A stretch of DNA of 64,000 bases from a virus. Both the position numbers and the translations under genes were made by a program. Location of the stretch: IMG/VR virus record IMGVR_UViG_3300045988_145033, positions 1 through 64,000 of that record, one strand, 5' to 3'. This document shows, in pieces, positions 3,240 to 50,845 of this stretch. Numbering within the stretch: position 1 is the stretch's first letter; each line of letters opens with the position of its first letter. The notes under the pieces are model-generated. The model was given only the letters and a program-made list of their open reading frames with translations, had not been told where the DNA came from and did not search any database.

Positions 3240-3251
3240 AACAGCCTCATA
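3240..3251 (+). promoter_or_regulatory. AACA-N6-TA late-type promoter motif 23 nt upstream of gene start
   Basis: AACAgcctcaTA; same motif class upstream of six other operon-initial genes. Confidence 0.35.
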
Positions 3252-3273
3252 AATTAATACTATTATGAGGTGA

Positions 3274-4410
3274 TTGAAATTGGATAAAATTACGATAGAT
3301 TTAAAAAAGAAAAGAGTACACTCTATAGGAATATCTCAAGCTGTAAATGTTAGAAAACTTATAGAAGATTATATAAATGAAAACTTTCAAGGACAAGTAA
3401 ATGTATGTAAAATGTATGTAGGATACGATAATGAATATTTTAAAACTTTAGGATTTGATATTAGATTTACAGATGTATTTAAAGGAGAGCTTATATCTCC
3501 AATAAATCTTCGTTATATGCTAAAGGGTGAGATACCAAGCTGTGATATATTATTTGTACTTATAGATACGGTAGTTGATAGAGACTTAACTGATGATATA
3601 CTTGCAAATATTCCTCTAACTACTCATCTTGTATATCTGTATGATAACTTACTTACAGATTTCTCAGATGGTGAGTTTTATAAAAGATTTATTAAATGTG
3701 ACTCGGATATACAGACTTATACAAGAAGAACTGATGTAGTTCCAGCTATTAATATGATACTTAATAAATTAAAGAAATATCAAGTTAAATATCTTGTAGA
3801 CCCTATATTTATGTCACAAGATTTTATAGTAACTCACGAAGCTATAAAAGATGAAGAGATACTTGATTATGATAAAATAATACTTATAAATGGAGAAAAT
3901 ATAGGAGAGTATAATATAAGAATAAGAGAAGCCTTGTCTCGTCCTTTCTCTCCAGTTACAAGAGATAAGATGATATGCTATACTCCAGTAGTTGCTAAAG
4001 TTCTACACCCTGATTATAGTATAACTACTTATGATGTACCGATATATTCGGATTTAGTAATAGTAGATAAAGTACAAGATTCTGATATGTTTAACGCTCC
4101 TATCTATAGAGTAAAACACACACTACCTTCAGGAGAAGATATAGAATTTGAAATTCCTATAAATCTTAACTTTATAGATTTACTAAATGAAGGTGCAGTT
4201 TCAAAAGATGTAGAGTTCACACCAGATACAGGATATAAGTTATATTTCTCATATGCTATTCCATTATATGCTGCTCAGAAAAGATACAATAAAACGCTTC
4301 TTATAGCTGGAGATGATTCTATCATAAATAAGTCAGTTATATATACAGCTATAAGATATGCAAGAAATACGTTTAAGTTAATACACGGTAATAATGTATT
4401 CTTGGAATAA
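3274..4410 (+). CDS. hypothetical protein (378 aa); TTG start (3274 or 3280) after GAGGTGA RBS
   Basis: long ORF; only non-ATG start available downstream of RBS. Confidence 0.65.
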   Translation: MKLDKITIDLKKKRVHSIGISQAVNVRKLIEDYINENFQGQVNVCKMYVGYDNEYFKTLGFDIRFTDVFKGELISPINLRYMLKGEIPSCDILFVLIDTVVDRDLTDDILANIPLTTHLVYLYDNLLTDFSDGEFYKRFIKCDSDIQTYTRRTDVVPAINMILNKLKKYQVKYLVDPIFMSQDFIVTHEAIKDEEILDYDKIILINGENIGEYNIRIREALSRPFSPVTRDKMICYTPVVAKVLHPDYSITTYDVPIYSDLVIVDKVQDSDMFNAPIYRVKHTLPSGEDIEFEIPINLNFIDLLNEGAVSKDVEFTPDTGYKLYFSYAIPLYAAQKRYNKTLLIAGDDSIINKSVIYTAIRYARNTFKLIHGNNVFLE

Positions 4411-4417
4411 AAAAATA

Positions 4418-4508
4418 GAAACAAGTAGAATAGAATAATCTATTAGTATTAGGAATTATAATATGTCAGAGAATGGGAACTCCCGAGTATAATTCTATTC
4501 TACTTGTC
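4418..4508. repeat. long inverted repeat (about 18-bp arms gaaacaagtagaatagaat / attctattctacttgtct) enclosing a 50-nt loop with internal gggaactccc hairpin
   Basis: arms are exact reverse complements; lies between convergent genes. Confidence 0.6.
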
Positions 4509-4534
4509 TAATATTATTGTATTTAATTGAAAAA

Positions 4535-4563
4535 GATAATGGTGGCGTAATGCCACCATTAAT
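4535..4563. terminator. bidirectional intrinsic terminator hairpin aatggtggcGTAAtgccaccatt between convergent genes
   Basis: 9-bp GC-containing stem flanked by A/T runs on both sides; near-identical copy at 46484-46510. Confidence 0.7.
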
Positions 4564-4565
4564 AT

Positions 4566-5333
4566 TTAATCTTTCTTATCGAAGTTCCCTCTTTTATTAA
4601 ATTTACCATATTTAGATAAAGACTTATCTACAAAACCTTTAGAACCTTCTTTCTTTTCAAATGGTTTCTTGAAAGGTTTTTTAACTTCATTTTCATATTG
4701 TACATTATCTCTTTTAGAGATTTTATGTCTTACACCTTTCTTATCAATAGTTGCGTAATCAAAAGTAATACCTGTGAATTTAGTATTAGCTTTAAATTCT
4801 TTACCGTCTATCTTTTCAGGTTTCATAAGTTCTTTATATACTTCTTTCTTTAGTTCTTCATCTTTCACAAGTTCTATTTCTTCCCAGTGTTTGAAATACT
4901 TTAAATTCTTCATATCTTTACCTAATCCGTATACAAGATTAGATAACCCTACAAATCTTTTAAATCCTACTACTATATTATTATAGCAAGGAATAGCAAG
5001 TTTACCGTCTTTATACAAGTATATTGGTAAATAAACTTCAGGCACTTCAGTTTCACTATCTTTAACTCTACCTTTTACTTTAAGTAAGTTCCACCCGTTT
5101 ACTATATCTCCAGCAAGTGTTTTAAATACATATTTAGCTATAGATTTAGCATTTCTTAGTCTATCAGCATATTCGTCTAAAGTTAAGAATTTCCAGTTAT
5201 TAGAATCTTTATATTCTCTTTCTATATCAGACATTCTAAAGAAGTATGCTAAATTACCAAGTATAGCTCTTTCATCTTTCTCCTTTTTTGTAAACTCTCT
5301 TTTTTCATAAGTTTTAAATTCTTTCTTTTCCAT
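4566..5333 (-). CDS. lysine-rich basic protein (about 255 aa; probable start at 5333 MEKKEFK after AAAGGAGA RBS)
   Basis: ORF 4566..5369; internal ATG at 5333 has the proper RBS. Confidence 0.65.
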   Translation of the reverse strand: MEKKEFKTYEKREFTKKEKDERAILGNLAYFFRMSDIEREYKDSNNWKFLTLDEYADRLRNAKSIAKYVFKTLAGDIVNGWNLLKVKGRVKDSETEVPEVYLPIYLYKDGKLAIPCYNNIVVGFKRFVGLSNLVYGLGKDMKNLKYFKHWEEIELVKDEELKKEVYKELMKPEKIDGKEFKANTKFTGITFDYATIDKKGVRHKISKRDNVQYENEVKKPFKKPFEKKEGSKGFVDKSLSKYGKFNKRGNFDKKD

Positions 5334-5388
5334 TTTTAATCTCCTTTTATTTAAGTATTTGGACTCCATAATCCTATATATAAGTTAT

Positions 5389-5424
5389 GTAAAAATAAAT
5401 AAATATGCAGGGTTTCCCCTGCAT
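5389..5424 (-). terminator. intrinsic terminator (atgcagggTTTCccctgcat + T-run on minus strand) after structural gene pair, followed by early-type box at 5370-5388
   Basis: hairpin plus TTTATTTATTTTT on transcribed strand. Confidence 0.65.
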
Positions 5425-5429
5425 AAGTA

Positions 5430-6254
5430 TTATATAGCTGGTTGATTTGCTGGTATTTCAAGTTTATTCTTTTCGTGATAAGCATGTCCAGTAAGTCTTT
5501 GAGCATGTCCTCTTTGACCGTTTAACTTATCAAGATAAGCTTGAGCAGCGTTAAATACGTTTTTGTCTAAGTCTATTGGCATACCTGTGAATTGCAAAGG
5601 AATTTCAGCGTGTTGATATTCCCCTTTAGTAGTGTCAAAGATAGACATTTGTGAGTTCTTAGGTAGCATATTAGTTATATATGCTGAATACACAACGTAT
5701 CTTTCAGTAGGGTCCATTGTAAAGTACATTCCTTCCATACTCATATTAGCCGCTGTAGGAGCTCCTTGGAAGCCATACATATTTGTAACACCGTCACGAA
5801 TAGACAAGCACCCTTCTAGCCAGTGAGCCATATAGAATGTATAGAACGCACCGTCAAGTTCTGCAACCATATTGATTGTGAACTCTCTTGTTAGTCCTGA
5901 TGTTTTTGATATGTAGTCTTGTTGTTGTCCTTCAATACCCGGGTCTTTAGTTCCTATTTCAGCAGTTCTATCTTGAGCGAAGTCAAGTTTATTTGCTCCA
6001 ACCATTATCATTTGCTTAAAGAATTTAGTTTCTTTAGGAAATGCAAATTCCATAAATGCACACATTTTAGTAGGAATAAATATACCACGTCCAGTAGTAT
6101 AGTGATGAAGAGCGTTTAGTGTTCTTCTTGATATAATACCGGGTTTAAGATAATGGAAATCATCTTGTGATATTGTATTCATATGATGTGGTTTTAGGTT
6201 ATTACCGTCAGCTGTAGACGCTGTTATTTTATTTCCAAAATAATCAAAAGCCAT
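5430..6254 (-). CDS. putative virion structural protein (274 aa; tail tube-like by position)
   Basis: immediately downstream of 676-aa gene in same transcription unit; no motif recognised. Confidence 0.35.
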   Translation of the reverse strand: MAFDYFGNKITASTADGNNLKPHHMNTISQDDFHYLKPGIISRRTLNALHHYTTGRGIFIPTKMCAFMEFAFPKETKFFKQMIMVGANKLDFAQDRTAEIGTKDPGIEGQQQDYISKTSGLTREFTINMVAELDGAFYTFYMAHWLEGCLSIRDGVTNMYGFQGAPTAANMSMEGMYFTMDPTERYVVYSAYITNMLPKNSQMSIFDTTKGEYQHAEIPLQFTGMPIDLDKNVFNAAQAYLDKLNGQRGHAQRLTGHAYHEKNKLEIPANQPAI

Positions 6255-6271
6255 TAGTTATCACTCCTTTC

Positions 6272-8302
6272 TTATGCTGATTCCCCAACGTAGTATCTAT
6301 AAACGTTAAGGTCAATGTGGTGAGATTTATTTGAACCGAATAGAGTTAAATCTATACCGTGTGATAATATTCCTTCAACTTGGTCAAATTTATCTTTATA
6401 GTAAGCAGTATATGCTACATTTCCACATTTACTTCTGAATTCTTCTAAGTCCTTATTTACAACTTCTTGAATCTTTGCAACATTTGCATCAGTTTGTAAG
6501 AAGTGTTTATTTCTATTTAATGTATCTGTAATCTTCTTCATAATTCTTCCTATTAAGAAAGCATTGTGATATTCTTGTAGAACTGATACTTTATAAGGGT
6601 TAGTAGAAGCCATCTTTTGTCCGTCTAAGAAATATCCCATTTTAGATGAAGTTACATAGTTCCATCCATTCATAACAAGATAAGTCTTATCTTCGATATC
6701 AGTTAAGATATTGATAACTGGGGTTATAGTTCCAGCTATAGGACCACCTACTATTCTATTTGCAAGAATAGGGTCTGACCAACCGTCGTTTACGAACTCT
6801 ACTTGAGCATTAATCATTAAATATGTCATAGGCACAGTTAATGTCTTTTGTTCATCGGTATCGTAGTAATCACACCAGTTTACTTCTTTTAAGCACATAT
6901 AGTTATTTAGTTTAAATCCTTCATCGAAAGACTTAAGTTCAGCTATAGATGCAATTTTACTTGGACAAATAGTAGCTATAACGTCTCTTCTTTTTGGAAT
7001 AGATGTATAGTTTCCTATCATTTCTTTAACTGGAACTGGATATCCGATATCATATATAACGTCTACTGGAGTTTCGTTAAAGTCAAGTATAGTAGGGTCT
7101 ATCTTTCCTTCATAGAAGTTTTTACACAATTCTTCGTATATCTTTATTTGTCCTAAAGTAGGGTGAGTAACTTTTAAGTTCCAATCGAATTTACCTTTTA
7201 AGATTTCTCCGTTTGTACCTTTATCAAGTCTTACTCTATCAAGATATGTCGCTTTATCTTCAACTAATGAAGAGAAGAAACTAAATCTTGTATTATCTCC
7301 AAATAAAGTACATAAAGCTGTAACTGGTACATCATCTTCTTCTAAAGCTTGCTTAACAACTTTAACTTTTTCAAGCTCACCTTTCATAGCAGTTTCTGCT
7401 ATATTGTGAGAAGATAGCGTTCCTATACAAGTTTCTAAATCTTCTTCAAGTTTTCCTAATGCTCCTACAACTAACTCTTGTAATTTCAAGTGGTTAGCTT
7501 CAGACGAGTGTGCATTTAATTGATAAGATTGTCCCTTTAATACTTGCTTAATATTTAAAGGTACAGTGTCATATCTTGAATCTTCAACAGCATTTATCTT
7601 ATATCTTTCTCTTTGAGTTTCAGATATAGTTACATCCATTTGATAAATATTGTCTTCATTATTAGATACAGTTCTCATCTTTTGGAAGATTACCTCAGTT
7701 TTATTTCCTAGTATTCCAGCACCAGTTCTCATAAGAACATAAACTGGAACTTTGTTAGCGTTACCTACATTAGAAGGAGCTAAAAGTTCAGCATCTTCTT
7801 TTCTTTTTAAGTTTTCGTGATTTTCAGCCACATATGATACTGTAGGTGTCTTAGTTAAAGTAAGTTCAACGTAGTCGACATTTACAACACCTGTAGCTGG
7901 TTGTGTATCTTGCCAAGCAGAAGTCTTTAATACAAAGTATTTCTTTTTAGGACTTGCTGTATCAGCAGGAGTTACAACGGCATTTAGTGATACGTTAGCA
8001 TTCTTAGATTTTTCATCTGTAAGTCTTCTAACATATGACCAACCACCAGCTCTTAAGTTCTTTATTATAGCTTTTCCCATAAGCCCATGTCTTTTGTAAG
8101 TTTGCTTACCAAATAACTCAGTAAACGAAGCTTCCATAGTACATACCATAGTTCTATCGTCAGGTCCCATATCTGCAAATACTCCAGATAATTGTCTACA
8201 AGTATTGTCAAGAGGAAGTGATGGTAGAGTAACTTCACTATAATCGTGAATTTCTAGGTAAGTATGTGGGAACATTTGCTTTGAATAGTAAAATATTGCC
8301 AT
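6272..8302 (-). CDS. putative major virion structural protein (676 aa; sheath- or capsid-sized)
   Basis: large ORF with strong RBS (ATAGGAGGTATAAATAT-ATG), AACA-N6-TA motif 45 nt upstream; function by size/context only. Confidence 0.4.
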   Translation of the reverse strand: MAIFYYSKQMFPHTYLEIHDYSEVTLPSLPLDNTCRQLSGVFADMGPDDRTMVCTMEASFTELFGKQTYKRHGLMGKAIIKNLRAGGWSYVRRLTDEKSKNANVSLNAVVTPADTASPKKKYFVLKTSAWQDTQPATGVVNVDYVELTLTKTPTVSYVAENHENLKRKEDAELLAPSNVGNANKVPVYVLMRTGAGILGNKTEVIFQKMRTVSNNEDNIYQMDVTISETQRERYKINAVEDSRYDTVPLNIKQVLKGQSYQLNAHSSEANHLKLQELVVGALGKLEEDLETCIGTLSSHNIAETAMKGELEKVKVVKQALEEDDVPVTALCTLFGDNTRFSFFSSLVEDKATYLDRVRLDKGTNGEILKGKFDWNLKVTHPTLGQIKIYEELCKNFYEGKIDPTILDFNETPVDVIYDIGYPVPVKEMIGNYTSIPKRRDVIATICPSKIASIAELKSFDEGFKLNNYMCLKEVNWCDYYDTDEQKTLTVPMTYLMINAQVEFVNDGWSDPILANRIVGGPIAGTITPVINILTDIEDKTYLVMNGWNYVTSSKMGYFLDGQKMASTNPYKVSVLQEYHNAFLIGRIMKKITDTLNRNKHFLQTDANVAKIQEVVNKDLEEFRSKCGNVAYTAYYKDKFDQVEGILSHGIDLTLFGSNKSHHIDLNVYRYYVGESA

Positions 8303-8347: not shown

Positions 8348-8361
8348 TAAACAGCTGTTTT
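8348..8361. promoter_or_regulatory. palindromic AAACAGCTGTTT giving AACA-N6-T(A/T) on both strands in divergent intergenic region
   Basis: reads AACAgctgttTA toward 8302 gene and AACAgctgttTT toward 8598 gene. Confidence 0.35.
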
Positions 8362-8438
8362 ATTTGGGTTTTCGATGTAAATAACATATTCTTGGAATAC
8401 TGATTGTCAATAACCTTTTATAGAGGTTTTCATATAAA

Positions 8439-8473
8439 GGGATATGAGTTCTACTTCTTTCATCTCATATCCC
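8439..8473. promoter_or_regulatory. perfect 10-bp inverted repeat gggatatgag / ctcatatccc with 15-nt spacer (hairpin or operator) in divergent control region
   Basis: exact reverse complement arms in an otherwise AT-rich 295-bp intergenic region. Confidence 0.45.
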
Positions 8474-8559
8474 GCTAATTGACAAAATAATTTTTTGCTT
8501 TTTCCTTAAAAGAATTTTTACCTACCCAAAGAGAGTGAGTGCCCGAAAGGGTGCTCACA

Positions 8560-8571
8560 AACATTTTTGTG
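8560..8571 (+). promoter_or_regulatory. AACA-N6-TG late-type promoter motif (AACAtttttgTG) 27 nt upstream of start
   Basis: shares extended similarity AACAnTTTTTGnTA with sites at 39745, 43962, 45274. Confidence 0.4.
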
Positions 8572-8597: not shown

Positions 8598-9101
8598 ATG
8601 GCAGAAGAAGTAAAGTTTCAAATGAATGGTGCGTCTGATACATTCAAGAAAAGAATTAAAGGATTACACCCTAAATTACAATTATGGCTTGGGTATATGC
8701 TTGCTACTTGTCCTGTAGATATATTTGTATCTGAAGGAGTAAGAACTCTTGCAAGACAACAAGAAATATTTGCACAAGGAAGAACTAAACCCGGAATAGT
8801 AGTTTCTTGGACAGATGGTGTAAAAAATAAATCTATGCACCAAATTCAAAGAGATGGGTACGGACATGCTGTTGATATATACTACGTTGGTTGGAAGAAC
8901 ACAGATTCACCAGCTGACCCTAGATGGCAAACTATATATGAACACGCAAAACTTTGTGCTAAAATGTTAGGAATTAACTTGGTACACGGAAGAGACTGGA
9001 AAAGAGTTGACTCTCCTCATCATCAACTTGAGGAATTCGACCCAGTTGAAGTTGCTGAATTTCAAAATATGCAAGCAAAAGGTATTGTACAAAGAGGATA
9101 G
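8598..9101 (+). CDS. peptidase M15-family zinc peptidoglycan hydrolase (L-alanyl-D-glutamate peptidase/VanY-like), probable endolysin
   Basis: SEGVRTLARQQEIF, GYGHAVDIY and DSPHH zinc-ligand motifs; start at 8598 behind AAAGGAGG RBS (ORF track start 8535 lacks RBS). Confidence 0.7.
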   Translation: MAEEVKFQMNGASDTFKKRIKGLHPKLQLWLGYMLATCPVDIFVSEGVRTLARQQEIFAQGRTKPGIVVSWTDGVKNKSMHQIQRDGYGHAVDIYYVGWKNTDSPADPRWQTIYEHAKLCAKMLGINLVHGRDWKRVDSPHHQLEEFDPVEVAEFQNMQAKGIVQRG

Positions 9102-10909: not shown

Positions 10910-11608
10910 TTATCCTATATATGGACCAATAAACGTTGTACTGAATGTGTCTTTCGCTATCTTTCTATCTAGCTCATATTCATGATGATAGAAACCATAT
11001 TTTTCTAAAAGAACTTCAATCTTATCTATTTCATCTCCATATGGTAATTCGTCGTATCTACCATTATGGTGGTTTAAATCCCAAGTATGACACATATAGA
11101 TTTTATCATAGAACTTATCTTCTAACTTTTTCTTATTGAATTCGTCTATAGCATAGATTAAACTGTCATAAGTTTTAGAAGATATTTTAGATTTAATGTC
11201 AGCCAAATCTGCTTCAGTTATTTCCAGTTTTTCTATATCATGAAATAGTCTAGTATAGTTATTTGTAATAACTCTTTTAAGACAATCTTCGTTACTTTCA
11301 AATACTGGTTTTTTGGCATCTTCAGAATAACCACTTTCATAGTATTCTAACTTTCTTCTGTAGTCACTATTCTTAGATTCTAATTCGTATGCTAAACTAT
11401 AAACTGGCGAATAATATCCGCAATATTTAATATCGACTAAATCTTGATATTCTTCTTTATATTGCTCTTTAAGATATCTTTCAAGTCTTTCAGCTTTAGC
11501 CTTAAGTTCGGGATTATCTTCTAAAAATCTTTCAATAAAATTTCCGTAAGCCTTTTGTCTTTCTTTCTTTTCACACATCATTCTTCTTTCAATTTTTTCA
11601 TCTCTCAT
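10910..11608 (-). CDS. hypothetical protein (232 aa)
   Basis: ORF with family-B leader upstream. Confidence 0.65.
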   Translation of the reverse strand: MRDEKIERRMMCEKKERQKAYGNFIERFLEDNPELKAKAERLERYLKEQYKEEYQDLVDIKYCGYYSPVYSLAYELESKNSDYRRKLEYYESGYSEDAKKPVFESNEDCLKRVITNNYTRLFHDIEKLEITEADLADIKSKISSKTYDSLIYAIDEFNKKKLEDKFYDKIYMCHTWDLNHHNGRYDELPYGDEIDKIEVLLEKYGFYHHEYELDRKIAKDTFSTTFIGPYIG

Positions 11609-15838: not shown

Positions 15839-15850
15839 AACACCCCTTTA
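15839..15850 (+). promoter_or_regulatory. AACA-N6-TA late-type promoter motif (AACAccccttTA) 25 nt upstream of first gene of plus-strand operon
   Basis: position relative to operon start. Confidence 0.4.
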
Positions 15851-16495: not shown

Positions 16496-16504
16496 GGTGA
16501 TAAT

Positions 16505-18682: not shown

Positions 18683-18695
18683 GGTGATATGAGTA

Positions 18696-20015: not shown

Positions 20016-20028
20016 GAGGTGAATGTAA

Positions 20029-39696: not shown

Positions 39697-39744
39697 ATTA
39701 AAACCTCCTACATTTATATTAAAATCTATAATCGTGTTTTGAAA

Positions 39745-39756
39745 AACACCTTTTTG
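39745..39756 (+). promoter_or_regulatory. AACA-N6-TG late-type promoter motif (AACAccttttTG)
   Basis: 29 nt upstream of ATG 39785. Confidence 0.4.
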
Positions 39757-39784: not shown

Positions 39785-42001
39785 ATGGAACTTAAAAATA
39801 CATATACATCTCAGATAGCTGAGATATTTAAAAGTAAAGAAACTTTAAAAGAAAACTGGATAAAATCAATAAAAAATAAGATAAGACTTGATGATATTAA
39901 ATCGCAAGAGTTATCAAGTATTTTTGATAAAGCATTCAAAGAAACTCGTATACAATATACAAACTCAGTACAAGGAAAGACAAGAACTCTAGGTGCACTA
40001 GAGTTTATTTATAATACATATAAAGACGAAAAGATACTTGTAGAAAACGGAGTAATATTTCGTAACTCAAGAGAAGTATTTGCTCCTACTGTGGAGTCTG
40101 AGATATATCTTTTCAAAAGAAGAAAGACAGTTAAGAAATTAGGTAACTATTGGCTTACAGAAGGGAATGACCCAATAGTTGGAGCGATATATGATAACTT
40201 GCAAAAGAATATAAAGATACTTATGAATACGTACTATGGGGTACTCACAAATCCATATTCGAGATTTTACAATAGAGATTTAGGAGATAGTATTACTATG
40301 CGTGGACGTTCATCTATATCAGTATCAGCTCTTTCTATGGAAGGAGCATTTGCTAAGAAGATACCACAAGAAACTGAAGCACTTCTTGCTTATTTTGATA
40401 GATGCTCGAAATCTCAGATAGATAAAGATATAATGTGTGATATGAGTTTTCTATATATGAATATTATGAAAGATAAAGATGAAATAGAAGAACTTTTAAA
40501 AGAGTTTCATTTAGAAAATCATTACGACAGAGAGCTTCTTGTAAGAATACTATGTGAATATACTACTCAAGATAGATGTAAGATATACTTTAAAAATAAC
40601 TTTAAAAGAATATCAGAACTTCACATATTTAAAAAGAATGTAATAGATTTCATGAAAGATAGTATAGAACTTAAGACACCGTTTCTTGACCCTAATGAAA
40701 TACCATTTGATAATGCTAAGGGTTATATAGAAGATTTAAGAAGAATAGTGTCTCAAGGACTTACAGGAATGTATTGGTATGGTGGAGATTATATCCAAGA
40801 AAGAGAGATACTTGTTAAGAACTCACAAGATGTAATACAAAGTATAGATAGAAAGGTTATACCGGTAATAGACACGGACTCTAACTTCTTATCTTATGAA
40901 ACTGAATATAATATATTATATGATATACTTAAAAATTCTATATCTTGTATGCCAGCAAAAGATGATGACAATACTTTCTACACTATATCTAATATATGTG
41001 CTATTGTGATGACAGAGGTTATAGATAGTGCTCTTGCGAGATATAAGACTTATGTAAATATACTTCCTGAGAAGAATGGTTGCTTGAAATTAAAGAATGA
41101 ATTTTTATATTTAAAACTTCTTATAACTTCAAGAAAGAAAAACTATATAGGACTTATATCATTAAAAGAGGGTAAACCTTATCCTAAACCTAAACTAGAT
41201 GTAAAAGGATTGGTATTTAAGAAATCGTCAGTAAACTCAAATATCGGTGAAGAGGTTGAATCTATTGTATCTAAACTTCTAAAAGATGATACTCTTAATA
41301 TAAATGATATACTTGCAAGAACTAGAGCAACTACAAATATGATACTAGATGCTCATAAAAACCAAAAGCTTTTAGATTACTGTGTAGCACTAAAGCTTAA
41401 GACTAAACTTGAAGAAACTGATATATCTGATTATAGATGCAAAATGGTAACTTTATGGAATGCTCTTGCTGAAAACGAAAGAGATATAATTATAACACCT
41501 GCAACTTTTTACTCTATTCCTATAAAGATTACAGATAAGTTTAGAAATAAATACCCAGAAATATATGGAAAAATTAAAGCGTGGCTTGACGAACGAAACA
41601 CAATTTTGATTAAAACTCAGATAAATGAGATACTTTCGGACTCTAAGAATAAGAAGTTTCGATTCCTTTCCTTTATGGACCAAAACTTTGACTTGTCTAC
41701 TATAGACTCAGCAGACTCGTGGGTACAAATGCGAAAAGACGCAATGAAACTTAAAAGAGATAAAGGTATAAAGATGCCTTCCGAAGATGTATCTTACTGG
41801 AGTGAAGACGATATATCAAAGATAGCATACCCTATAACGTCAGAAGTAGTTCCAGAATTTATCTTAGATTTAGTGAACGCCGACAATTCATTAGTTCTTG
41901 TCAATTCCCTTTTAGCACCTGTAATTCAAGAGCTTCATGTTTTATGTCCAAGAAATAGTGATGGTAAAAGACTTGTAACTAATATTGTCGAAAGATACTA
42001 G
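39785..42001 (+). CDS. family B DNA polymerase, C-terminal portion only (motifs B, C and KKRY; motif A and exonuclease domain absent)
   Basis: KILMNTYYGVLTNPYSRFY (KxxxNSxYG), VIPVIDTDSNF (YGDTDS-like), SRKKNYIGL (KKRY); ATG 39785 behind AAGGGGG; ORF track TTG 39776 less likely. Confidence 0.7.
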   Translation: MELKNTYTSQIAEIFKSKETLKENWIKSIKNKIRLDDIKSQELSSIFDKAFKETRIQYTNSVQGKTRTLGALEFIYNTYKDEKILVENGVIFRNSREVFAPTVESEIYLFKRRKTVKKLGNYWLTEGNDPIVGAIYDNLQKNIKILMNTYYGVLTNPYSRFYNRDLGDSITMRGRSSISVSALSMEGAFAKKIPQETEALLAYFDRCSKSQIDKDIMCDMSFLYMNIMKDKDEIEELLKEFHLENHYDRELLVRILCEYTTQDRCKIYFKNNFKRISELHIFKKNVIDFMKDSIELKTPFLDPNEIPFDNAKGYIEDLRRIVSQGLTGMYWYGGDYIQEREILVKNSQDVIQSIDRKVIPVIDTDSNFLSYETEYNILYDILKNSISCMPAKDDDNTFYTISNICAIVMTEVIDSALARYKTYVNILPEKNGCLKLKNEFLYLKLLITSRKKNYIGLISLKEGKPYPKPKLDVKGLVFKKSSVNSNIGEEVESIVSKLLKDDTLNINDILARTRATTNMILDAHKNQKLLDYCVALKLKTKLEETDISDYRCKMVTLWNALAENERDIIITPATFYSIPIKITDKFRNKYPEIYGKIKAWLDERNTILIKTQINEILSDSKNKKFRFLSFMDQNFDLSTIDSADSWVQMRKDAMKLKRDKGIKMPSEDVSYWSEDDISKIAYPITSEVVPEFILDLVNADNSLVLVNSLLAPVIQELHVLCPRNSDGKRLVTNIVERY

Positions 42002-42004
42002 GAG

Positions 42005-42433
42005 GTGATAATTATGACAGGTATGAAAGACTTTATTGTACATACAGTAAAAGAGATTAAGGATATATTCGGAAGCATACTAGCTAAAGTTCTATTCTTC
42101 TACATATCGTATAAAGCGAAGAAGCTTTTATCTCTTATATCGACTGTATATATAGACGGAGTTAAATATCTCATCGAGTCAAGAGACACGATAAATGGTA
42201 AATTAAAGCTTTTCTCTAAAGATAAAGGATATTTAAACTTAGAACAAGATATCCTTTTAAGTGCTATAAAAGGAGCATTAGAAAAGCAAACTAATCCATT
42301 TGTCCTCAATGACAAAGATGTTCAGCTAACGTCCCTTAATATAATAAAAGAAAAAGTATCAAAACCGTTAGCTGATTTTATAAATATAAAGAATAAAAGA
42401 GTTACTCTTGATTTCAAGAGTATAGATAAATAA
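42005..42433 (+). CDS. hypothetical protein (142 aa)
   Basis: ORF. Confidence 0.55.
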   Translation: MIIMTGMKDFIVHTVKEIKDIFGSILAKVLFFYISYKAKKLLSLISTVYIDGVKYLIESRDTINGKLKLFSKDKGYLNLEQDILLSAIKGALEKQTNPFVLNDKDVQLTSLNIIKEKVSKPLADFINIKNKRVTLDFKSIDK

Positions 42434-42445
42434 GGAGGCTTTAAA

Positions 42446-43324
42446 ATGAAAGGTGCAATGAAAGAAAACTTTTTTGGGGATATAATGGAATTTATAAATG
42501 GTTCGAAAGAACCATTTATAAATCTTTCAGATTACAATAAAAAGGATAAACTATTCTTTTTTGATATGTCTTTATATCTTTTTATATCAAATAAACTTAA
42601 TTCATCATTTAAAGAAAAGGGACAAGATAAGATTGAGTTTACAAAAAATAGTCCTGAGAAAGATTGGTTTAAATCAAATAATATAAATTCTTGGATAGAG
42701 TTTGTATTCTTTATGAAAGAATGGAGAGAAAAGAATAATAATACTAAGAGTGTAATAGATATGGAAGAAGTATCTCATATAGGTTTATTTAAAGGATACT
42801 ATGATGAGTTCTTCTTGCTTTACAAGAAGTTCCCTAAGATACTATGGGTTACAGCTCTTAGTAATCATAAGATAGAAAATATAGACGGAACTCAATACTA
42901 CTTCATAGATGAACTAGAAGAAATTACAGTTCTTATAGCTATGAATGCTTGGGTGAGACACTTAATGGATAAACACGATAGATACTTTGCTGAGCTTATA
43001 AATACAGAATCTGAGGGACAAGAAAGATTTATAGAATACATAAAAGACTATGTTAAAAATGGATTACCTGAAAATCACGATAGTATTTTAGATTATATAG
43101 GTTACGCTATCTTTATGTCGGGAGTTCAATATTCTAATAAGTTCTTAAGTGAGAATAAGGATTTAATAGGAATGAAACTAGATAAGTATTCAAATAAGGC
43201 TATATCTAAAAGGCTTATAAACGTATTTAAAGAATATATGTGTAATATGCCTAAAGAAGATAACCCTACAAGACCTCGTGAGCTTATAGATAAAATAAAA
43301 GAAATAGAGCATAATGTAAAGTAA
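42446..43324 (+). CDS. hypothetical protein (292 aa)
   Basis: ORF with AAGGAGG RBS. Confidence 0.6.
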   Translation: MKGAMKENFFGDIMEFINGSKEPFINLSDYNKKDKLFFFDMSLYLFISNKLNSSFKEKGQDKIEFTKNSPEKDWFKSNNINSWIEFVFFMKEWREKNNNTKSVIDMEEVSHIGLFKGYYDEFFLLYKKFPKILWVTALSNHKIENIDGTQYYFIDELEEITVLIAMNAWVRHLMDKHDRYFAELINTESEGQERFIEYIKDYVKNGLPENHDSILDYIGYAIFMSGVQYSNKFLSENKDLIGMKLDKYSNKAISKRLINVFKEYMCNMPKEDNPTRPRELIDKIKEIEHNVK

Positions 43325-43331
43325 AGAGATA

Positions 43332-43349
43332 TGGTAGGCTTTCGCCTAC
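43332..43349. repeat. hairpin ggtaggcTTTCgcctacc, copy 1 of 21-nt exact repeat atggtaggctttcgcctacca (copy 2 at 43631-43651)
   Basis: exact duplicate 300 bp apart, no U-run. Confidence 0.7.
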
Positions 43350-43380
43350 CATAAAACTGATATTTATTGCGATAAATAAA

Positions 43381-43392
43381 GGACGCCTGAAA
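43381..43392. repeat. GC-rich motif GGACGCCTRAAA, copy 1 of 3 (others 43703-43714, 43825-43836)
   Basis: 12-mer thrice in 455 bp of a 29% GC genome. Confidence 0.6.
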
Positions 43393-43448
43393 TATATCCG
43401 AAAGGATTTCTATAGCAAATTAAAAGCAGTACCAAATCTTTGTTGTTA

Positions 43449-43482
43449 GATTATGGCTGGGCTCCATGCCCCAACCATAATC
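43449..43482. ncRNA. stable composite hairpin gattatgg-ct-gggcTCCATgccc-caa-ccataatc (possible structured RNA or protein-binding site)
   Basis: 8-bp outer and 4-bp inner perfect stems. Confidence 0.3.
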
Positions 43483-43961
43483 CGTCCTTACATGATTAAT
43501 GTTATGAAAGTAATATCTCTGAAAAAATAGAATTTTCATGAATATTTCAAAAAATGCAACGGGACACCCAAAATAATGAATAATATTCAAATTAGTTACA
43601 CCATAGTGTTCTGTAAAAATGCAAAGACTTATGGTAGGCTTTCGCCTACCACTTGTCACCTCTTAATTTGTATAAAGATTAATCATACAATAGCTTACAA
43701 TAGGACGCCTAAAATGTATATTACAATCAATACACTTTTGTGTTACGTATTTAATTAAAAATGTGAGTGTAGTTGATGTATCTATAACGATGAACTTAAC
43801 TATCAATATCATTAGTTTGGTAAAGGACGCCTAAAAGCAGTAACCAAAAATATACTTTGCGTAGCGATACTACGCCTATTAGCCATATCTATTTACTGAA
43901 AGGAGAAAATACAATACACACTCACATTCAAGAAAGTGTTGTGTAATTTGTCAATATTTGG

Positions 43962-43973
43962 AACAATTTTTTG
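43962..43973 (+). promoter_or_regulatory. AACA-N6-TG late-type promoter motif (AACAatttttTG)
   Basis: 20 nt upstream of ATG 43993. Confidence 0.4.
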
Positions 43974-43992: not shown

Positions 43993-44748
43993 ATGGTTAC
44001 TAATGAAGAATATGAACATAAAGCACATTATAATACTATGGATTTTTATACAAAAGCTGATGCGGCTCATATGGGAGACCATGTAGAGCTTGTAAAGCAA
44101 AGAGCTCTTGATATGTATAATTGGTTAAAGGAAAAGAAAGGAATAGAAGCTGACCTCAAATGTGTAATACTTGCGGCTTCATTTCATGATACAGGTTCTG
44201 CTATACAAAGAGAAGACCATAATGTAATATCTTATAACTTATTTAAAGCTGGTAAATTAACTGACGGTATTGAGCTTACAGATGATGAAAAGATTATTAT
44301 AGCAAATGCTATACTTCAGCATTCGTCTCATTTTAAAGGAAACTATTATTCTATAGAAGCTGAGATAGTAGCATCAGCTGATAGAGATGAACCTGACATA
44401 TATGCGATACTTTCTCGTAGTGTAGACTATGCTAGAAAACATAATCCAGATGATATAATAGATAGTGTAGCTGAATATAATATCAAAAGATATGCTAGTT
44501 TTCCGAGCTCTGACTATAGAGTTCCTGATTGGCACTTCGAGTATTGGAATGATATAATGCCGAATTGTTTTACATATATTAATAAATTTTTCCAAAACGA
44601 AGATATAGTTAAAAAGGTTGTGAATTCTATAGCAGACGATAATACTGAAAGATATGTACGAGAGATGATAGATAGCTATATACACAGTGATACTAAACCA
44701 AATTTATTCTCCGAAAGTGTATTCAGGAGATTTAAAGGAGAGATGTAA
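43993..44748 (+). CDS. HD-domain metal-dependent phosphohydrolase (252 aa)
   Basis: H..HD..H..D pattern (AAHMGDH, ASFHDTGS, LQHSSH, ASADRDE); start 43993 behind GGAGGTG. Confidence 0.55.
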   Translation: MVTNEEYEHKAHYNTMDFYTKADAAHMGDHVELVKQRALDMYNWLKEKKGIEADLKCVILAASFHDTGSAIQREDHNVISYNLFKAGKLTDGIELTDDEKIIIANAILQHSSHFKGNYYSIEAEIVASADRDEPDIYAILSRSVDYARKHNPDDIIDSVAEYNIKRYASFPSSDYRVPDWHFEYWNDIMPNCFTYINKFFQNEDIVKKVVNSIADDNTERYVREMIDSYIHSDTKPNLFSESVFRRFKGEM

Positions 44749-44750
44749 TT

Positions 44751-45260
44751 ATGAAAGAAATTTTAAAAACTGAAGACGGAAGAACTATTGAAAACGATAC
44801 AGTTAAATCTGGTAAACCAGTTTATGAAGCTCATAAGTATAACTGCCTTATGAGAGATAAGCATATGGGAAAACTTATAAGAGATACTAAGATACCTAAG
44901 TGTACTATATCTAAGAAGTTCTATAGAGAGCTTGTATATAATAAGACTGGAGATTGTATGTATGAAAGGCTTGTAGACTGGAAGACAGGAAGAACTTTGC
45001 ATTCAGAAGGTTCTATAACACAAGAACCTATAGGATATAGAGTTAGACTTACCTGTCCTAATAATGATACAAAACTTTCATATCAAGTTAATTATTCTAA
45101 ATGGTGGTCATCAGAAGAATATTATATGGATTTATTCAAGATAGATAAAGTTACAGAAAATCTATACTTTGATGACTTCTACGTATACGATTACTATGGT
45201 AAAGTATGTAAGGTTTTATGTGTAAGAAAAGAGTACGGAAAACAATATTCACGTGGGTAA
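44751..45260 (+). CDS. hypothetical protein (169 aa)
   Basis: ORF. Confidence 0.55.
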   Translation: MKEILKTEDGRTIENDTVKSGKPVYEAHKYNCLMRDKHMGKLIRDTKIPKCTISKKFYRELVYNKTGDCMYERLVDWKTGRTLHSEGSITQEPIGYRVRLTCPNNDTKLSYQVNYSKWWSSEEYYMDLFKIDKVTENLYFDDFYVYDYYGKVCKVLCVRKEYGKQYSRG

Positions 45261-45270
45261 TACCCACGTG
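45250..45270 (+). terminator. hairpin cacgtgggTAATAcccacgtg overlapping stop codon
   Basis: 8-bp stem; U-run only after 10 nt. Confidence 0.4.
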
Positions 45271-45273
45271 AAA

Positions 45274-45285
45274 AACAATTTTTTG
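45274..45285 (+). promoter_or_regulatory. AACA-N6-TG late-type promoter motif (AACAatttttTG)
   Basis: 29 nt upstream of ATG 45315. Confidence 0.4.
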
Positions 45286-45314: not shown

Positions 45315-46481
45315 ATGATTAATGATAGCAGAATAATAAGACCTTTTATAACTGATGCTGATGATATGTACTCATTTGATGATTTAGACCAAATGAAATC
45401 AGAGATACAATCTATACTAGGTTTTGATTTAAAAAAGATAATAAGAGTTAATAGATTTTCAAATGCTGATACTAAAGGTAGAATACATTGGAGATACTTA
45501 AGTGATACTCAAGATGATACTTCTGTAGAAGTTAGAGTGAATCTATCAAATGATATAGTACACCCAAATAAAGTTAAAAAATATGCAAATGTTGTAGTAG
45601 GTATACCTTTTATGAATAACGACGGTACAGCACTTCAATATTGGAATGGTTCAGCTTATGAAACTGTGCCTAAGAAACTACAAATAGGAAGACAGTTTGT
45701 AGCATCAGGAGATAACATAGAATGGACTAAAATACCAGTTCTTTTAAAGACAGAAGATGAATTAAAAGCACTCGATAATATAGTATCAGGAGATATATTT
45801 ATAATTCCTAATATGCCAACAGCAACGACAGCTGGTTCTATATCTATGTATTTTGCATCTGTAAAAGAATCAACAGAATTTCCATATAATACAGAGATAG
45901 AAACAGCTACGACTGGTATACACGTTTACAGAATATCATCGTTGGATTTTAGCTACATATCAGACGGTGAAGAAAATAATACTACTGGAAAGCTTACAAT
46001 AGAAGATACAGCAGTTGCAAGCGGTAAAGCTTTAACTTATGTACAAGATAATGTAGTTAATAAGAAAGCTATAATATCTGTAGTATCACAAGCATCGGCT
46101 GATACCGTACATTCATCTGAAGTTACTAAAATGATAGATGATAAGGCAACTCTTGCTTTAAAGAATAGAAGAATAATTTATGATACTGGCAATGGTAAAC
46201 CTAAGAGCTACATATATACAGAAAGAACTTTATACAAAAGACAGCTACAAGCTGGTACTAATACGTTCGTATTTAAAATAGAAGATAGTGCAGAATCGGT
46301 TGCTATACTTGCAGATATATGCTCTTGGACTATAAATAGAGATGTAAGTGCTACATCTAAATATGAATTTACTTTTGATACTACTAAGAAAGAATTAAAG
46401 CTTACTTATGTAAAAGATGCAAGTGATACAAATACTCATATAAAGGTAAATCTATTCCATGGATATAAAGTAGTTGAATAA
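45315..46481 (+). CDS. hypothetical (structural?) protein (388 aa)
   Basis: ORF with AAAGGAGG RBS. Confidence 0.6.
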   Translation: MINDSRIIRPFITDADDMYSFDDLDQMKSEIQSILGFDLKKIIRVNRFSNADTKGRIHWRYLSDTQDDTSVEVRVNLSNDIVHPNKVKKYANVVVGIPFMNNDGTALQYWNGSAYETVPKKLQIGRQFVASGDNIEWTKIPVLLKTEDELKALDNIVSGDIFIIPNMPTATTAGSISMYFASVKESTEFPYNTEIETATTGIHVYRISSLDFSYISDGEENNTTGKLTIEDTAVASGKALTYVQDNVVNKKAIISVVSQASADTVHSSEVTKMIDDKATLALKNRRIIYDTGNGKPKSYIYTERTLYKRQLQAGTNTFVFKIEDSAESVAILADICSWTINRDVSATSKYEFTFDTTKKELKLTYVKDASDTNTHIKVNLFHGYKVVE

Positions 46482-46510: not shown

Positions 46511-46512
46511 CT

Positions 46513-48426: not shown

Positions 48427-49102
48427 TTTTAAATTCCTCCTTATTTTTATCTTCTTCTTTAGGTTTATCTAGCACCCAAGTTTCTACAGCAACAACAGCT
48501 TTATCCTTTATCCAAGGAAAGTTAATAGGTGCAAGCATTACAAAGTCATCATGCAAGGCATCTAAAAGTAGTTCATTTGCTGTAAATATAGAAGAACGTT
48601 CTTCTTTGGTACTATATTGTAGTTTCTCTCTTTTTAATCTATTTCCCATTTCTTCATCAGTTATAAGATTAGGTAAAACTCCTAATAAGTTTAGTTTCTT
48701 TAATACTAAAAGCTCTACTGTATTTGTAGGTTGATAAACGCATAAAACTTCGGGTACTCCTATTATAGCCATTATTCCCGAAACTCTTACAGGAATATCT
48801 TCTATATTTGTAAATTTAGAAAGTAACCAGTTTAAAAACTCATCATCTACATTAAGATACGCCCACATAAATCTTGTCATAAAAGCATTAAATAATGAGT
48901 ATCTATCAAGATTACGTTCGTCTTTTAATGTTATCTCAAGTAAAGCCTTACAAACTAAGAAGTTTTCTTTATCTTCTTCAGTTACCATTTTATCAGGGTT
49001 CTCACACCAATCGACATATAGCTTCCCCATAAGCTCAGCTATAACAAGCTGAGTTGAGTAGCATACGTCGTCGAGAATTAAATATTTAGTATTAGATGCC
49101 AT
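48356..49102 (-). CDS. hypothetical protein (248 aa)
   Basis: ORF overlapping chaperonin start by 71 nt. Confidence 0.55.
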   Translation of the reverse strand: MASNTKYLILDDVCYSTQLVIAELMGKLYVDWCENPDKMVTEEDKENFLVCKALLEITLKDERNLDRYSLFNAFMTRFMWAYLNVDDEFLNWLLSKFTNIEDIPVRVSGIMAIIGVPEVLCVYQPTNTVELLVLKKLNLLGVLPNLITDEEMGNRLKREKLQYSTKEERSSIFTANELLLDALHDDFVMLAPINFPWIKDKAVVAVETWVLDKPKEEDKNKEEFKNEHDRESGTTEENTFGDKSHSDE

Positions 49103-49105
49103 ATA

Positions 49106-49339
49106 CTATACCCTCCACATACTCATCATATACATTAAAGCAACAATAGAAAAACCTATTACAAATGCTATTCCTCTTGCTTTTCTTTTATTACCTTTTT
49201 TGATATGCTTTTTGTATCTTTTTATATTAAGTAGTACAGCATATTGTAGCATCACCATAAATATACCTGTCTTCATAATAGACGTGAATATAGTAGCGAT
49301 AACGTATTTTAAATAAGCATCACTCATTATCTTCATCAT
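49106..49339 (-). CDS. small membrane protein, 2 predicted TM helices (77 aa; holin-like?)
   Basis: hydrophobic segments + basic linker. Confidence 0.45.
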   Translation of the reverse strand: MMKIMSDAYLKYVIATIFTSIMKTGIFMVMLQYAVLLNIKRYKKHIKKGNKRKARGIAFVIGFSIVALMYMMSMWRV

Positions 49340-50822
49340 AATTAGAACCTCCTTTTTTATGAGTTATATCTATTTCTTTCCAGTCTTTGAATTCTTCATC
49401 AAAGAACTTATAAAGCTTTCTATAATATCTTTTAGTTTCAGAAAAACTCTTATCCACAGCTTTAATGTATATTCCAGTTTCTCCACCAACCCGTCCGTTT
49501 CTTCCTGTAGCTTGTTTAAATATCGAGCCCCCTGCATAAGTTTCCATATCTATTGTAAGTTTAATCTTAGATATATCAAGTCCTCTACCAATACTGTCAG
49601 TAATTGATATTATAAAAGGTTTTGTAAGAGCATTCGCTCTTTCTCCTTTTGGGAGTTCTGAATGAAACTCAGATACATGCTTTGCTGGGATATTAAACTT
49701 ATCCATTACCCATTCCTTTATAAGCTTACAATTTTCTATCTTACCTGTCATTATAACTATCTTATATCCCTTGTCCATTTCATATATAGGTATAGCGTGA
49801 GTTTTTATTATCTTCTCTAGTATATTAAAATACCCTTCCGATGCTATAGCTACAGCCATATGCTTATCAGGAACAAACTGTCCTTTGAAATTATAACAAG
49901 ATTGTCTTACTTTTTGTAAAGGTTTTGACTCCCAACCATAAACGTAAGCTATTCTATTTGGCTTTTCTGTATAAAACTCTTTACCATATTTTGGTATAGT
50001 TTTAATCATCTTTTGAAAAGCACTATCATCAAACTGTCCATTTTTAAATGTAGTTGCTGATAAATATAAGTTATATCTCACAGAAGTTGTAAAGTCTAGC
50101 TTTAGCATACTGTCTACTTCTGTATCAAACTCATCAAATATCTTAAGTCCTATTTTATTTTTAATACACCATTCAGCAACGAATGGAGAACCTTTTTGCT
50201 CTATTATAGAACGTAGAGTTGCGTGAGTGGTTACAAATACTTTATATCCTAAATCTTCTTCATAGGTAGATAAAAACCATTTAGAACCATTCATAGCACA
50301 CACGTATCTTTGACGAAGCTTTGTATGATTAGCAAATGAACCTTTCTCTCCTGCCCATTGATTTAAAAGAGTATTTGTCTTAACTAGAACCAGTATATTA
50401 CAACCAAGTTCTGATGCTATAGCAGTTGCTGTAAATGTCTTACCTCTTCCTGTAGGCATATCTATTATAACTTGAGTTTCCCCACGTCTAAATTCCTTTA
50501 AAGCTAGAGTTATAACTTTCATTTGCTCAGGAAACGGCTTTTTATTAACATTAAAGAATTTCTTATTATCACAAGGGAATGCAAGTCCTTTATGAATACT
50601 TCCATATACATTCAATTTATTCATAAGAAATGTATCTCCTATACCTCTTGGAACTCTTAAGTTATCAGGAGATAATAGATAACAAAATGGTTCTTTTTCT
50701 TCTGTGATATAGTTTACTGTCGATAAAGAATCCATTAAATCTTGAGCATAAAACATTTCTCTTTTCTTATTATTTTTATCAAATTCTATTTTATAAAAAG
50801 TGGTAAATTTAGTAATCTTCAT
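49320..50822 (-). CDS. SF2 (DEAD/DExH-like) helicase (500 aa)
   Basis: MPTGRGKT (motif I), FDEFD (II), SAT (III), QATGRNGR (VI). Confidence 0.75.
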   Translation of the reverse strand: MKITKFTTFYKIEFDKNNKKREMFYAQDLMDSLSTVNYITEEKEPFCYLLSPDNLRVPRGIGDTFLMNKLNVYGSIHKGLAFPCDNKKFFNVNKKPFPEQMKVITLALKEFRRGETQVIIDMPTGRGKTFTATAIASELGCNILVLVKTNTLLNQWAGEKGSFANHTKLRQRYVCAMNGSKWFLSTYEEDLGYKVFVTTHATLRSIIEQKGSPFVAEWCIKNKIGLKIFDEFDTEVDSMLKLDFTTSVRYNLYLSATTFKNGQFDDSAFQKMIKTIPKYGKEFYTEKPNRIAYVYGWESKPLQKVRQSCYNFKGQFVPDKHMAVAIASEGYFNILEKIIKTHAIPIYEMDKGYKIVIMTGKIENCKLIKEWVMDKFNIPAKHVSEFHSELPKGERANALTKPFIISITDSIGRGLDISKIKLTIDMETYAGGSIFKQATGRNGRVGGETGIYIKAVDKSFSETKRYYRKLYKFFDEEFKDWKEIDITHKKGGSNYDEDNE

Positions 50823-50833
50823 TTATTTCACCT

Positions 50834-50845
50834 CAAAAGGCTGTT
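50834..50845 (-). promoter_or_regulatory. AACA-N6-TG motif (AACAgcctttTG) abutting helicase RBS
   Basis: minus strand; would give near-leaderless transcript. Confidence 0.25.

Follow-up and report, generated by a model that had tools for sequence, protein, structure and literature searches.

The window analyzed here, a 64-kb stretch of viral DNA (positions 1 to 64,000 of the IMG/VR record IMGVR_UViG_3300045988_145033), is densely coding, has a G+C content of about 31%, and shares about 90% DNA identity with JD-Fnp1, JD-Fnp4, JD-Fnp6 and JD-Fnp7, Fusobacterium nucleatum phages of 175-180 kb. On this identity the window is assigned to a F. nucleatum phage with a genome of about 180 kb. The element under study is AACA-N6-T(A/G), a short word whose two fixed blocks are separated by six nucleotides. 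Copies of the element lie, in one orientation and at one preferred spacing, shortly 5' of operon-initial genes; judging from their placement and from the polymerase genes of the phage, they very probably are core promoters for the phage non-virion RNA polymerase (nvRNAP), within a transcription programme like that of phage AR9. The genes most relevant to the analysis are the following; a GroEL-like chaperonin and a RusA-like resolvase are further encoded in the window.

6272-8302, minus strand: sheath-like (tail-sheath-like) protein
26917-28455, minus strand: topoisomerase II A subunit
33516-35444, minus strand: C-terminal half (642 aa) of a split non-virion beta' subunit; an AT-rich early box at about 35752 heads its operon
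39785-42001, plus strand: family-B DNA polymerase, in operon 39785-43324 (plus)
43993-44748, plus strand: HD-domain protein, in operon 43993-45260 (plus)
49320-50822, minus strand: superfamily 2 (SF2) helicase, heading an operon that runs onward

AACA-N6-T(A/G) sites in the window

Twenty-four AACA-N6-T(A/G) sites are found on the two strands of the window, against 109±12 expected from dinucleotide-preserving shuffles. Half of them (12 of 24) are gene-proximal, lying 12-60 nt 5' of a co-oriented start codon when starts are refined by the ribosome-binding site. Among the other sites, four head the units of an array resembling small RNA genes, the one at 8383 is intergenic, and eight are clearly intragenic. 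Sites associated with genes or units are listed below, together with one spacing variant.

3205-3216, minus strand, AACATTTTACTA: candidate promoter of 2719-3171 (minus), back to back with 3240 (plus)
3240-3251, plus strand, AACAGCCTCATA: candidate promoter of 3280-4410 (plus), kept in JD-Fnp4 at 169142
8348-8359, minus strand, AACAGCTGTTTA: candidate promoter of the tail-sheath-like gene 6272-8302 (minus)
8383-8394, plus strand, AACATATTCTTG: in non-coding DNA, kept in JD-Fnp4 at 163918
8560-8571, plus strand, AACATTTTTGTG: candidate promoter of 8599-9101, directly past a hairpin
15839-15850, plus strand, AACACCCCTTTA: candidate promoter of operon 15875-22428 (plus)
26918-26929, minus strand, AACACCACTTTA: inside the final topoisomerase codons, candidate promoter of 26217-26891 (minus) and downstream genes
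28481-28493, minus strand, AACACACGAGATG: AACA-N7-TG variant, 26 nt 5' of the topoisomerase II gene 26917-28455 (minus) and past a terminator hairpin, a candidate only
39727-39738, minus strand, AACACGATTATA: candidate promoter of 39322-39696 (minus), divergent partner of 39745 (plus)
39745-39756, plus strand, AACACCTTTTTG: candidate promoter of the family-B DNA polymerase operon 39785-43324 (plus)
43433-43444, minus strand, AACAAAGATTTG: heads array unit 4
43599-43610, minus strand, AACACTATGGTG: heads array unit 3
43733-43744, minus strand, AACACAAAAGTG: heads array unit 2
43929-43940, minus strand, AACACTTTCTTG: heads array unit 1, divergent from 43962 (plus)
43962-43973, plus strand, AACAATTTTTTG: candidate promoter of the HD-domain operon 43993-45260 (plus)
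45274-45285, plus strand, AACAATTTTTTG: candidate promoter of 45315-46481 (plus), directly past terminator hairpin 45248-45272
50834-50845, minus strand, AACAGCCTTTTG: candidate promoter of the SF2 helicase operon (49320-50822, minus, onward), past terminator 50870-50891

The transcription start predicted from site 3205 (minus) is located 34 nt 5' of the refined start codon, and the JD-Fnp4 orthologue has its annotated start 32 nt past the same motif. Site 8560 lies outside any gene, the actual ATG at 8599 starting 27 nt past the motif. Further 5', site 8383 (plus) has a hairpin of 10 bp (GGGATATGAG..CTCATATCCC, 8441-8475) and a T-run downstream of it, and a short transcript may be encoded in the interval 8383-8500 (plus), which lies 5' of the second candidate promoter at 8560. 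Hairpins resembling terminators outnumber expectation (20 vs. 5.5±2.5), and several are found immediately 5' of AACA sites.

An earlier sequence-only reading of the window had named eight sites (3240, 8560, 15839, 39745, 43962 and 45274 on the plus strand, 8348 and 50834 on the minus strand). All are present, but the list was incomplete, missing those at 3205, 26918, 39727, 43433, 43599, 43733 and 43929 on the minus strand and at 8383 on the plus strand. The roughly 100 chance matches that it assumed per strand correspond to the number (about 109) expected for both strands combined. The palindrome AAACAGCTGTTT, described as matching on both strands, does so in its minus copy only, the plus half (8349-8360) reading AACA-N6-TT or AACA-N7-TA; the extended form AACA-A-TTTTTTG-(G)ATAA, attributed to four sites, holds for 43962 and 45274, while 39745 and 50834 share only its TTTTGA part.

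Placement, spacing and avoidance of the element

Placement was scored over an upstream zone, set at 12-70 nt 5' of a co-oriented open reading frame (ORF) start and comprising 3% of window positions, and all 256 tetramers were tested as the core of core-N6-TR words. Nine of the 24 window sites fall within the zone (p=1.8e-8) and AACA is first of the 256 cores, the runners-up being ribosome-binding-site words; the positional enrichment implied by the sequence-only reading is real, and stronger than that reading claimed. In the complete JD-Fnp4 genome 30 of 70 sites lie in the zone (p=4.7e-28), and AACA again ranks first of 256. After start refinement, 37 of the 70 JD-Fnp4 sites put the predicted transcription start 12-67 nt, mostly 25-35 nt, 5' of a start codon, and a further 13 sites lie within non-coding DNA. 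AR9, run through the same pipeline as a positive control, also has AACA first of 256, the zone holding 77 of its 412 sites (p=1e-34); this is in line with a map of this phage by differential RNA sequencing (dRNA-seq), which gives 94 late promoters with the consensus (PMC5312081).

Enrichment and avoidance both peak at a spacing of six nucleotides, with minor use of seven. Total counts in the window are 44-58 for spacers of 2-5 and 8-10 nt, 24 for N6 and 27 for N7; outside the upstream zone, JD-Fnp4 has 40 words with N6, 70 with N7, and 101-184 with other spacings. Within genes, the element was counted against synonymous-codon shuffles. Coding N6 sites in the window number 10 in the sense orientation, vs. 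45.0±5.3 expected, and 2 in antisense, vs. 25.7±4.3. When every JD-Fnp4 gene is considered, sense sites are 6-fold low (22 vs. 132±9) and antisense sites 12-fold low (6 vs. 74±7). AACA-Nn-TR words are generally depleted in this genome, by about 2.3-fold across spacings, vs. 6- to 12-fold at N6. Depletion is restricted to words ending in TA, TG and, to a lesser degree, TT; it is lost when the first A of the core is altered (NACA), and partly kept when the fourth position is altered. The pattern looks like selection against stray copies of a largely self-acting signal. In-gene avoidance in AR9 is about 10-15% only.

The logo of the Fusobacterium-phage sites reads T(-16) n A(-14) n A(-12) AACA (C/G) C n n TTT (A/G)(G/A). 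The additional positions are T at -16, A at -14 and -12, C/G at -7, C at -6, TTT from -3 to -1, and G/A at +2. Information beyond the fixed bases is about 13 bits, vs. about 5 in AR9, before small-sample correction. The base at +1 is A in 21 of 30 sites, in the start context T(-3)T(-2)T(-1)A/G(+1).

The sites are conserved beyond the JD-Fnp phages. A sister clade found in IMG/VR, with 65% beta' identity and about 75% DNA identity where alignable, keeps the back-to-back AACA pair that separates the DNA polymerase gene from its neighbour (39727/39745 in the window), the pair at the HD gene, with the divergent arrangement of 43929/43962 type in records L020, L022, L023 and L015, and the site following the topoisomerase gene (L020 16851, L023 17315). 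At the sister-clade sites the N6 bases vary, the leaders are unalignable, and the flanks diverge.

The array at 43325-43960 (minus) is made up of four short non-coding units, each starting with AACA-N6-TG. A box, TTT(T/C)AGGCGTCCT, is found in three of the four units, its first G near 43832, 43710 and 43388, and the hairpin GGTAGGCGAAAGCCTACC ends two of the four. ARAGORN and Rfam detected no known RNA in the window. The equivalent region of L020 (3042-4010, plus) contains five AACA-headed units with a T-arm-like GGTTCRAnTCC and hairpin terminators; ARAGORN reports in this region an odd 93-nt 'tRNA-???' whose first base, 3457, is exactly the predicted start base. Rfam searches of L020 and L023 gave no matches.

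Early boxes and RNA polymerase genes

A second, AT-rich box, TATATATTAT-N6-AG (variant TATATATAATAA-TGTAG), is located 5' of 15 early-looking minus-strand genes of the window; examples on that strand are found at 10844, 11688, 12893, 14905, 32114, 35752, 36558, 37275, 38198, 38440, 39282, 51153 and 51508. Early boxes and AACA sites do not co-occur within 130 nt in the window, and AACA heads each of the six transcription units of the plus strand. The early box is near-identical to the AR9 early consensus AAATATATATTAT-N6-G (PMC5312081), so that both promoter classes match those of AR9.

Of the split beta' gene cited by the sequence-only reading, the window carries the C-terminal half, at 33516-35444. 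The 642-aa product matches PHROG "RNA polymerase beta subunit" families and has 97-98% amino-acid identity to its counterparts in the JD-Fnp phages. Outside Fusobacterium phages its nearest relatives, at 24-29% identity, are the non-virion beta' C-terminal halves of AR9/PBS1 and of Staphylococcus and Listeria jumbo phages, and for this reason the split is taken as real; the phmmer match to AR9 127805-129700 has E=5e-26. The following polymerase genes were identified in JD-Fnp4 by phmmer searches with AR9 proteins.

1-1449: non-virion beta' N-terminal half (beta'N)
135667-137595: non-virion beta' C-terminal half (beta'C), the equivalent of the window gene
26487-28370: non-virion beta C-terminal half (betaC)
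83950-86742: fused virion beta', a single 930-aa protein matching both the N- and the C-terminal AR9 virion beta' fragments
3468-7922: virion beta, a single 1484-aa protein

On these matches the phage encodes AR9-like virion and non-virion multisubunit RNA polymerases. Virion beta' and beta being single chains, the virion enzyme is less fragmented than in AR9. In JD-Fnp4 the AT-rich box precedes all three non-virion genes (beta'N, beta'C and betaC), AACA-N6-TR precedes the genes for the capsid-like, terminase, portal and sheath proteins, and AACA-N7-TA precedes both virion polymerase operons.

Two types of conserved 5' leader are found past early boxes on the minus strand. One, 'AAGGCAATCCAAYGGGGAGAAGCCA', precedes 10910-11608, 35820-36479 and 36631-37197 (products of 188-232 aa); the other, 'GACAAGAGTAAACTTA..GGYTAAGAGCT', precedes 37360-38112 and 50880-51068. 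They may be structured leader RNAs.

The beta'C gene is adjoined by the gene of a 617-aa early protein (29661-31514), whose homologues are confined to this phage clade, and have a variable N-terminal 40% and a near-invariant C-terminal part. Its structure, predicted with AlphaFold from a 22-sequence alignment, was rejected as a poor model, with a mean predicted local distance difference test score (pLDDT) of 52.5, a predicted template modelling score (pTM) of 0.33, and pLDDT below 50 in the invariant C-terminal part. Sequence searches of the PDB with this protein, the products of 24447-26204 and 45315-46481, and the HD protein found no match. Comparison of window 29661-32046 (minus) with JD-Fnp4 139059-140687 revealed in the window an additional gene for a 182-aa product (31498-32046), preceded by an early box of its own, and the window protein beside it is about 100 aa longer at the N-terminus than the JD-Fnp4 counterpart.

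The operon behind the 15839 site includes the interval 16505-21774 (plus), which gave no Pfam or PHROG matches and, unlike the rest of the window (about 90% identical to JD-Fnp phages), no megablast match in the phage collection. It is a more diverged, fast-evolving block, possibly with a role in host recognition. Palindromic restriction sites are strongly avoided in the 64 kb: GATC (185 expected), GCGC (19 expected) and GGCC (17 expected) do not occur at all, and CATG is 3-fold low (54 vs. 163 expected).

A probable non-virion polymerase promoter and its alternatives

The late promoter of AR9/PBS1, 5'-AACA-N6-T-A/G(+1) with template 3'-UUGU-N6-AU/C, is read by the nvRNAP holoenzyme with gp226 (PMC5312081, PMC5449584, PMC9209446). 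Its consensus was mapped by dRNA-seq and primer extension, the last base being the transcription start (PMC5312081, PMC7598289), and AR9 late promoters include variant spacings (PMC5312081). The likeness to this consensus pointed out in the sequence-only reading is complete in core and spacing. As in AR9, the element is paired with a near-identical AT-rich early box, is placed before late/structural and continuously needed genes, and is accompanied by homologous split nvRNAP (gp270/gp154/gp105/gp089 in AR9) and virion polymerase subunits; in both genomes the upstream test ranks AACA first.

By analogy with AR9, AACA would occupy positions -11 to -8, presumably recognized on the template strand, and the last A/G would be the first transcribed base, giving predicted leaders of about 12-47 nt ahead of the start codon. 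The virion-packaged RNA polymerase would read TATATATTAT-N6-AG and transcribe the early genes, those for nvRNAP subunits included. Next, nvRNAP would initiate at AACA sites and transcribe the genes of replication, namely those for the DNA polymerase, the helicase and the HD hydrolase, together with a group of small non-coding units and the virion genes, namely those for the sheath, the capsid-like protein, the portal, the terminase and the subunits of the virion polymerase. The virion polymerase would thus make nvRNAP, and nvRNAP would make virions, including the packaged polymerase of the next generation, according to the AR9/phiKZ logic (PMC5312081, PMC7598289). A short signal near-sufficient for initiation would, as a consequence, be purged at the exact spacing from both strands of coding DNA.

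Several observations weigh against assigning the element to nvRNAP. Polymerase identity to AR9 is only about 26%, and the N-terminal half of non-virion beta, part of the AR9 promoter pocket, was not identified. A gp226 homologue was not found, using PDB 7S01 chain A as the query, either by phmmer or with a family hidden Markov model built from 18 homologues (best E 0.018, at 7 bits); hhalign comparisons with window proteins of at least 150 aa and JD-Fnp4 proteins of at least 200 aa gave probabilities of 2% or less. The spacer preference is different from that of AR9 (C-rich -7/-6 and T at -3 vs. A/T-rich and A at -3). Eight intragenic matches remain in the window, and most are kept in JD-Fnp4; six of the eight (455, 12704, 32616, 41597, 53734 and 56179), all on the sense strand and conserved in that phage, could be internal promoters or merely tolerated matches. 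In AR9, 13 late-promoter sites are reported as internal. Finally, no upstream AACA enrichment was found in a 50-kb sample of the Staphylococcus phage MarsHill, which includes few operon starts (4 of 62 sites in the zone), and MarsHill beta' is about as similar to the window protein as is AR9 beta'. The AACA class may not extend to all AR9 relatives, and on this result the consensus shared with AR9 could be convergent. As to the specificity subunit, gp226 is a structural relative of sigma factors, and gp226 and phiKZ gp68 are related in structure only; missing sequence similarity does not therefore amount to a missing subunit.

The promoter class and the two-polymerase programme proposed by the sequence-only reading stand up to all available computational tests, while its suggestion of uracil-containing DNA found no support. 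That the same promoter class is used on virion DNA with deoxyuridine in place of thymidine, the template 3'-UUGU-5' being read in methyl-excluding pockets as in AR9, where uracil is required at -11 and -10, is unlikely, although the core is identical to that of the uracil-dependent AR9 promoter and the nearest polymerase relatives outside the Fusobacterium clade include shown or presumed uracil phages (AR9/PBS1, S6, MarsHill-like). Phmmer searches of JD-Fnp4 with AR9 Ugi, dCMP (deoxycytidine monophosphate) deaminase and 5'(3')-deoxyribonucleotidase gave no homologue, and Pfam scans of 169 of the 172 JD-Fnp4 ORFs found no dCMP/dCTP (triphosphate) deaminase family and none related to uracil-DNA glycosylase. 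The same scans found neither thymidylate synthase nor dUTPase, the first as the sequence-only reading had anticipated, a result that would suit uracil DNA but is uninformative; ribonucleotide reductase, too, has no homologue by phmmer with AR9 proteins and no Pfam family. The uracil-pathway scans returned MazG-like, HD and radical-SAM families only, to which NCBIfam gave no finer class, and the deoxynucleoside triphosphate pool could be a target of the unclassified hydrolases of HD-domain and MazG-like type. A standard kit, TruSeq DNA Sample Prep, was used to sequence JD-Fnp1 and JD-Fnp4, whereas uracil phages needed libraries made without polymerase chain reaction or uracil-tolerant polymerases, and many near-complete relatives of 175-182 kb were assembled from ordinary metagenomes. 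The total absence of GATC may point to site avoidance, rather than base substitution, as the protection of a T-containing site. Nor does the motif itself imply uracil, since the single change V206G, within the specificity helix 2.1bis of gp226 (V206, I207, Y210), makes this protein accept thymine at -10. The same change makes a natural thymine-reading version plausible, and the evidence leans toward thymine in the virion DNA. It is tentatively proposed that nvRNAP reads an AR9-type -10 element in thymine DNA (template 3'-TTGT-5') via a specificity subunit that sequence comparison does not link to gp226, in a naturally occurring parallel to the engineered, T-tolerant V206G enzyme; the 12-nt signal would be near self-sufficient, hence the 6- to 12-fold purge, and would also drive the small RNA/tRNA-like array.

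Readings that dispense with nvRNAP fare worse. Recognition by the RNA polymerase of the host, guided by one of the host's alternative sigma factors or by a phage-encoded sigma-like factor, would suit a short element centred near -10 before late genes, as in phage-sigma systems, as well as the failure to identify a phage-polymerase specificity subunit. It is improbable, as the sites show no conserved -35 or TATAAT-like element and are unconserved 5' of -16, matches of sigma70 type are no more numerous than expected (73 vs. 82.8±8) with no strong one at an AACA site, and no sigma-factor Pfam family was found in the scans of 169 of the 172 JD-Fnp4 ORFs; moreover, the motif equals an experimentally determined nvRNAP consensus, and the two polymerase sets look complete and are of the kind that frees phiKZ and AR9 from the host enzyme. 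It is even harder to regard the motif as the operator of a regulatory DNA-binding protein, or as an element acting in the RNA (processing site, leader signal), that merely lies near a promoter. Closeness to ribosome-binding sites would fit a leader element, and AR9 5' ends are weakly enriched by terminator exonuclease (TEX) treatment (PMC5312081), but the distance from motif to start codon is variable (12-67 nt), non-coding units are also headed by the motif, back-to-back divergent copies serve divergent genes, and the 12-fold antisense avoidance fits spurious initiation rather than a leader element. There remains the notion of a non-functional signal, either a by-product of composition or codon bias or an avoided Type I-like bipartite restriction target (AAC-N6-...). 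The genome does avoid restriction-type words (GATC, GCGC, GGCC, CATG), and a two-part word with 6 nt between its halves looks like a Type I target. Restriction avoidance leaves unexplained the oriented retention of sites 12-47 nt 5' of operon-initial genes, as it does the cross-clade conservation and the way in which the two boxes divide the gene classes; codon bias is controlled by the synonymous-codon shuffles, and spacings 3 and 9, which share codon phase with 6, are only about 2-fold depleted. Readings based on composition, codon bias or restriction avoidance were rejected on the positional, shuffle and variant tests, and a non-functional origin is hardly credible.

If the element is an nvRNAP promoter, it belongs to a class already known from AR9, found here in a distant lineage, with a more informative consensus and unusually strong purging. 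The Fusobacterium phage differs from AR9 in its host, a Gram-negative anaerobe, in a genome of about 180 kb, below the 200-kb jumbo cut-off, and in a virion beta' that is fused rather than split. Its consensus is longer and its purging 6- to 12-fold instead of 10-15%, and it has neither a detectable gp226 homologue nor evidence of uracil DNA. PhiKZ has the same kind of enzyme and a two-polymerase programme, in which the specificity subunit is gp68, and its nvRNAP reads thymine-containing double-stranded DNA, as that of the Fusobacterium phage would if its DNA is ordinary; yet the phiKZ late motif is 5'-T(-3)ATG(+1), with no AACA at -11 to -8, and TATG is not conserved in the Fusobacterium phage. 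Staphylococcus jumbo phages such as MarsHill and S6, presumed to have uracil DNA, resemble the Fusobacterium phage in their AR9-like polymerase sets and a TATATTAT early box, and have a beta' among the nearest, but a published MEME run recovered no late motif in MarsHill. Sigma70 -10 and extended -10 elements are likewise short, located near -10, and define the start of the transcription bubble; the Fusobacterium-phage sites differ in having neither TATAAT nor a -35 hexamer (TTGACA, 16-18 bp from the -10 in the sigma70 type), and AR9 reads the template strand, not the non-template strand.

Where phages have multisubunit RNA polymerases of their own, late promoters have been regarded as unpredictable from sequence (PMC7598289). 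Here a signal of AR9 type is recognizable in the DNA itself, and yields a near-complete operon map for a poorly annotated group, the JD-Fnp phages, in which about 16% of genes have a known function. Phages of this type are under development against a bacterium linked to colorectal cancer. The AR9 promoter class would be extended to a distant lineage, a Gram-negative host and a genome below 200 kb, and the Fusobacterium phages offer a clean test of whether the AACA element needs uracil DNA. The spacing-specific purging, in turn, would provide a readout of polymerase specificity obtainable from genome sequence.

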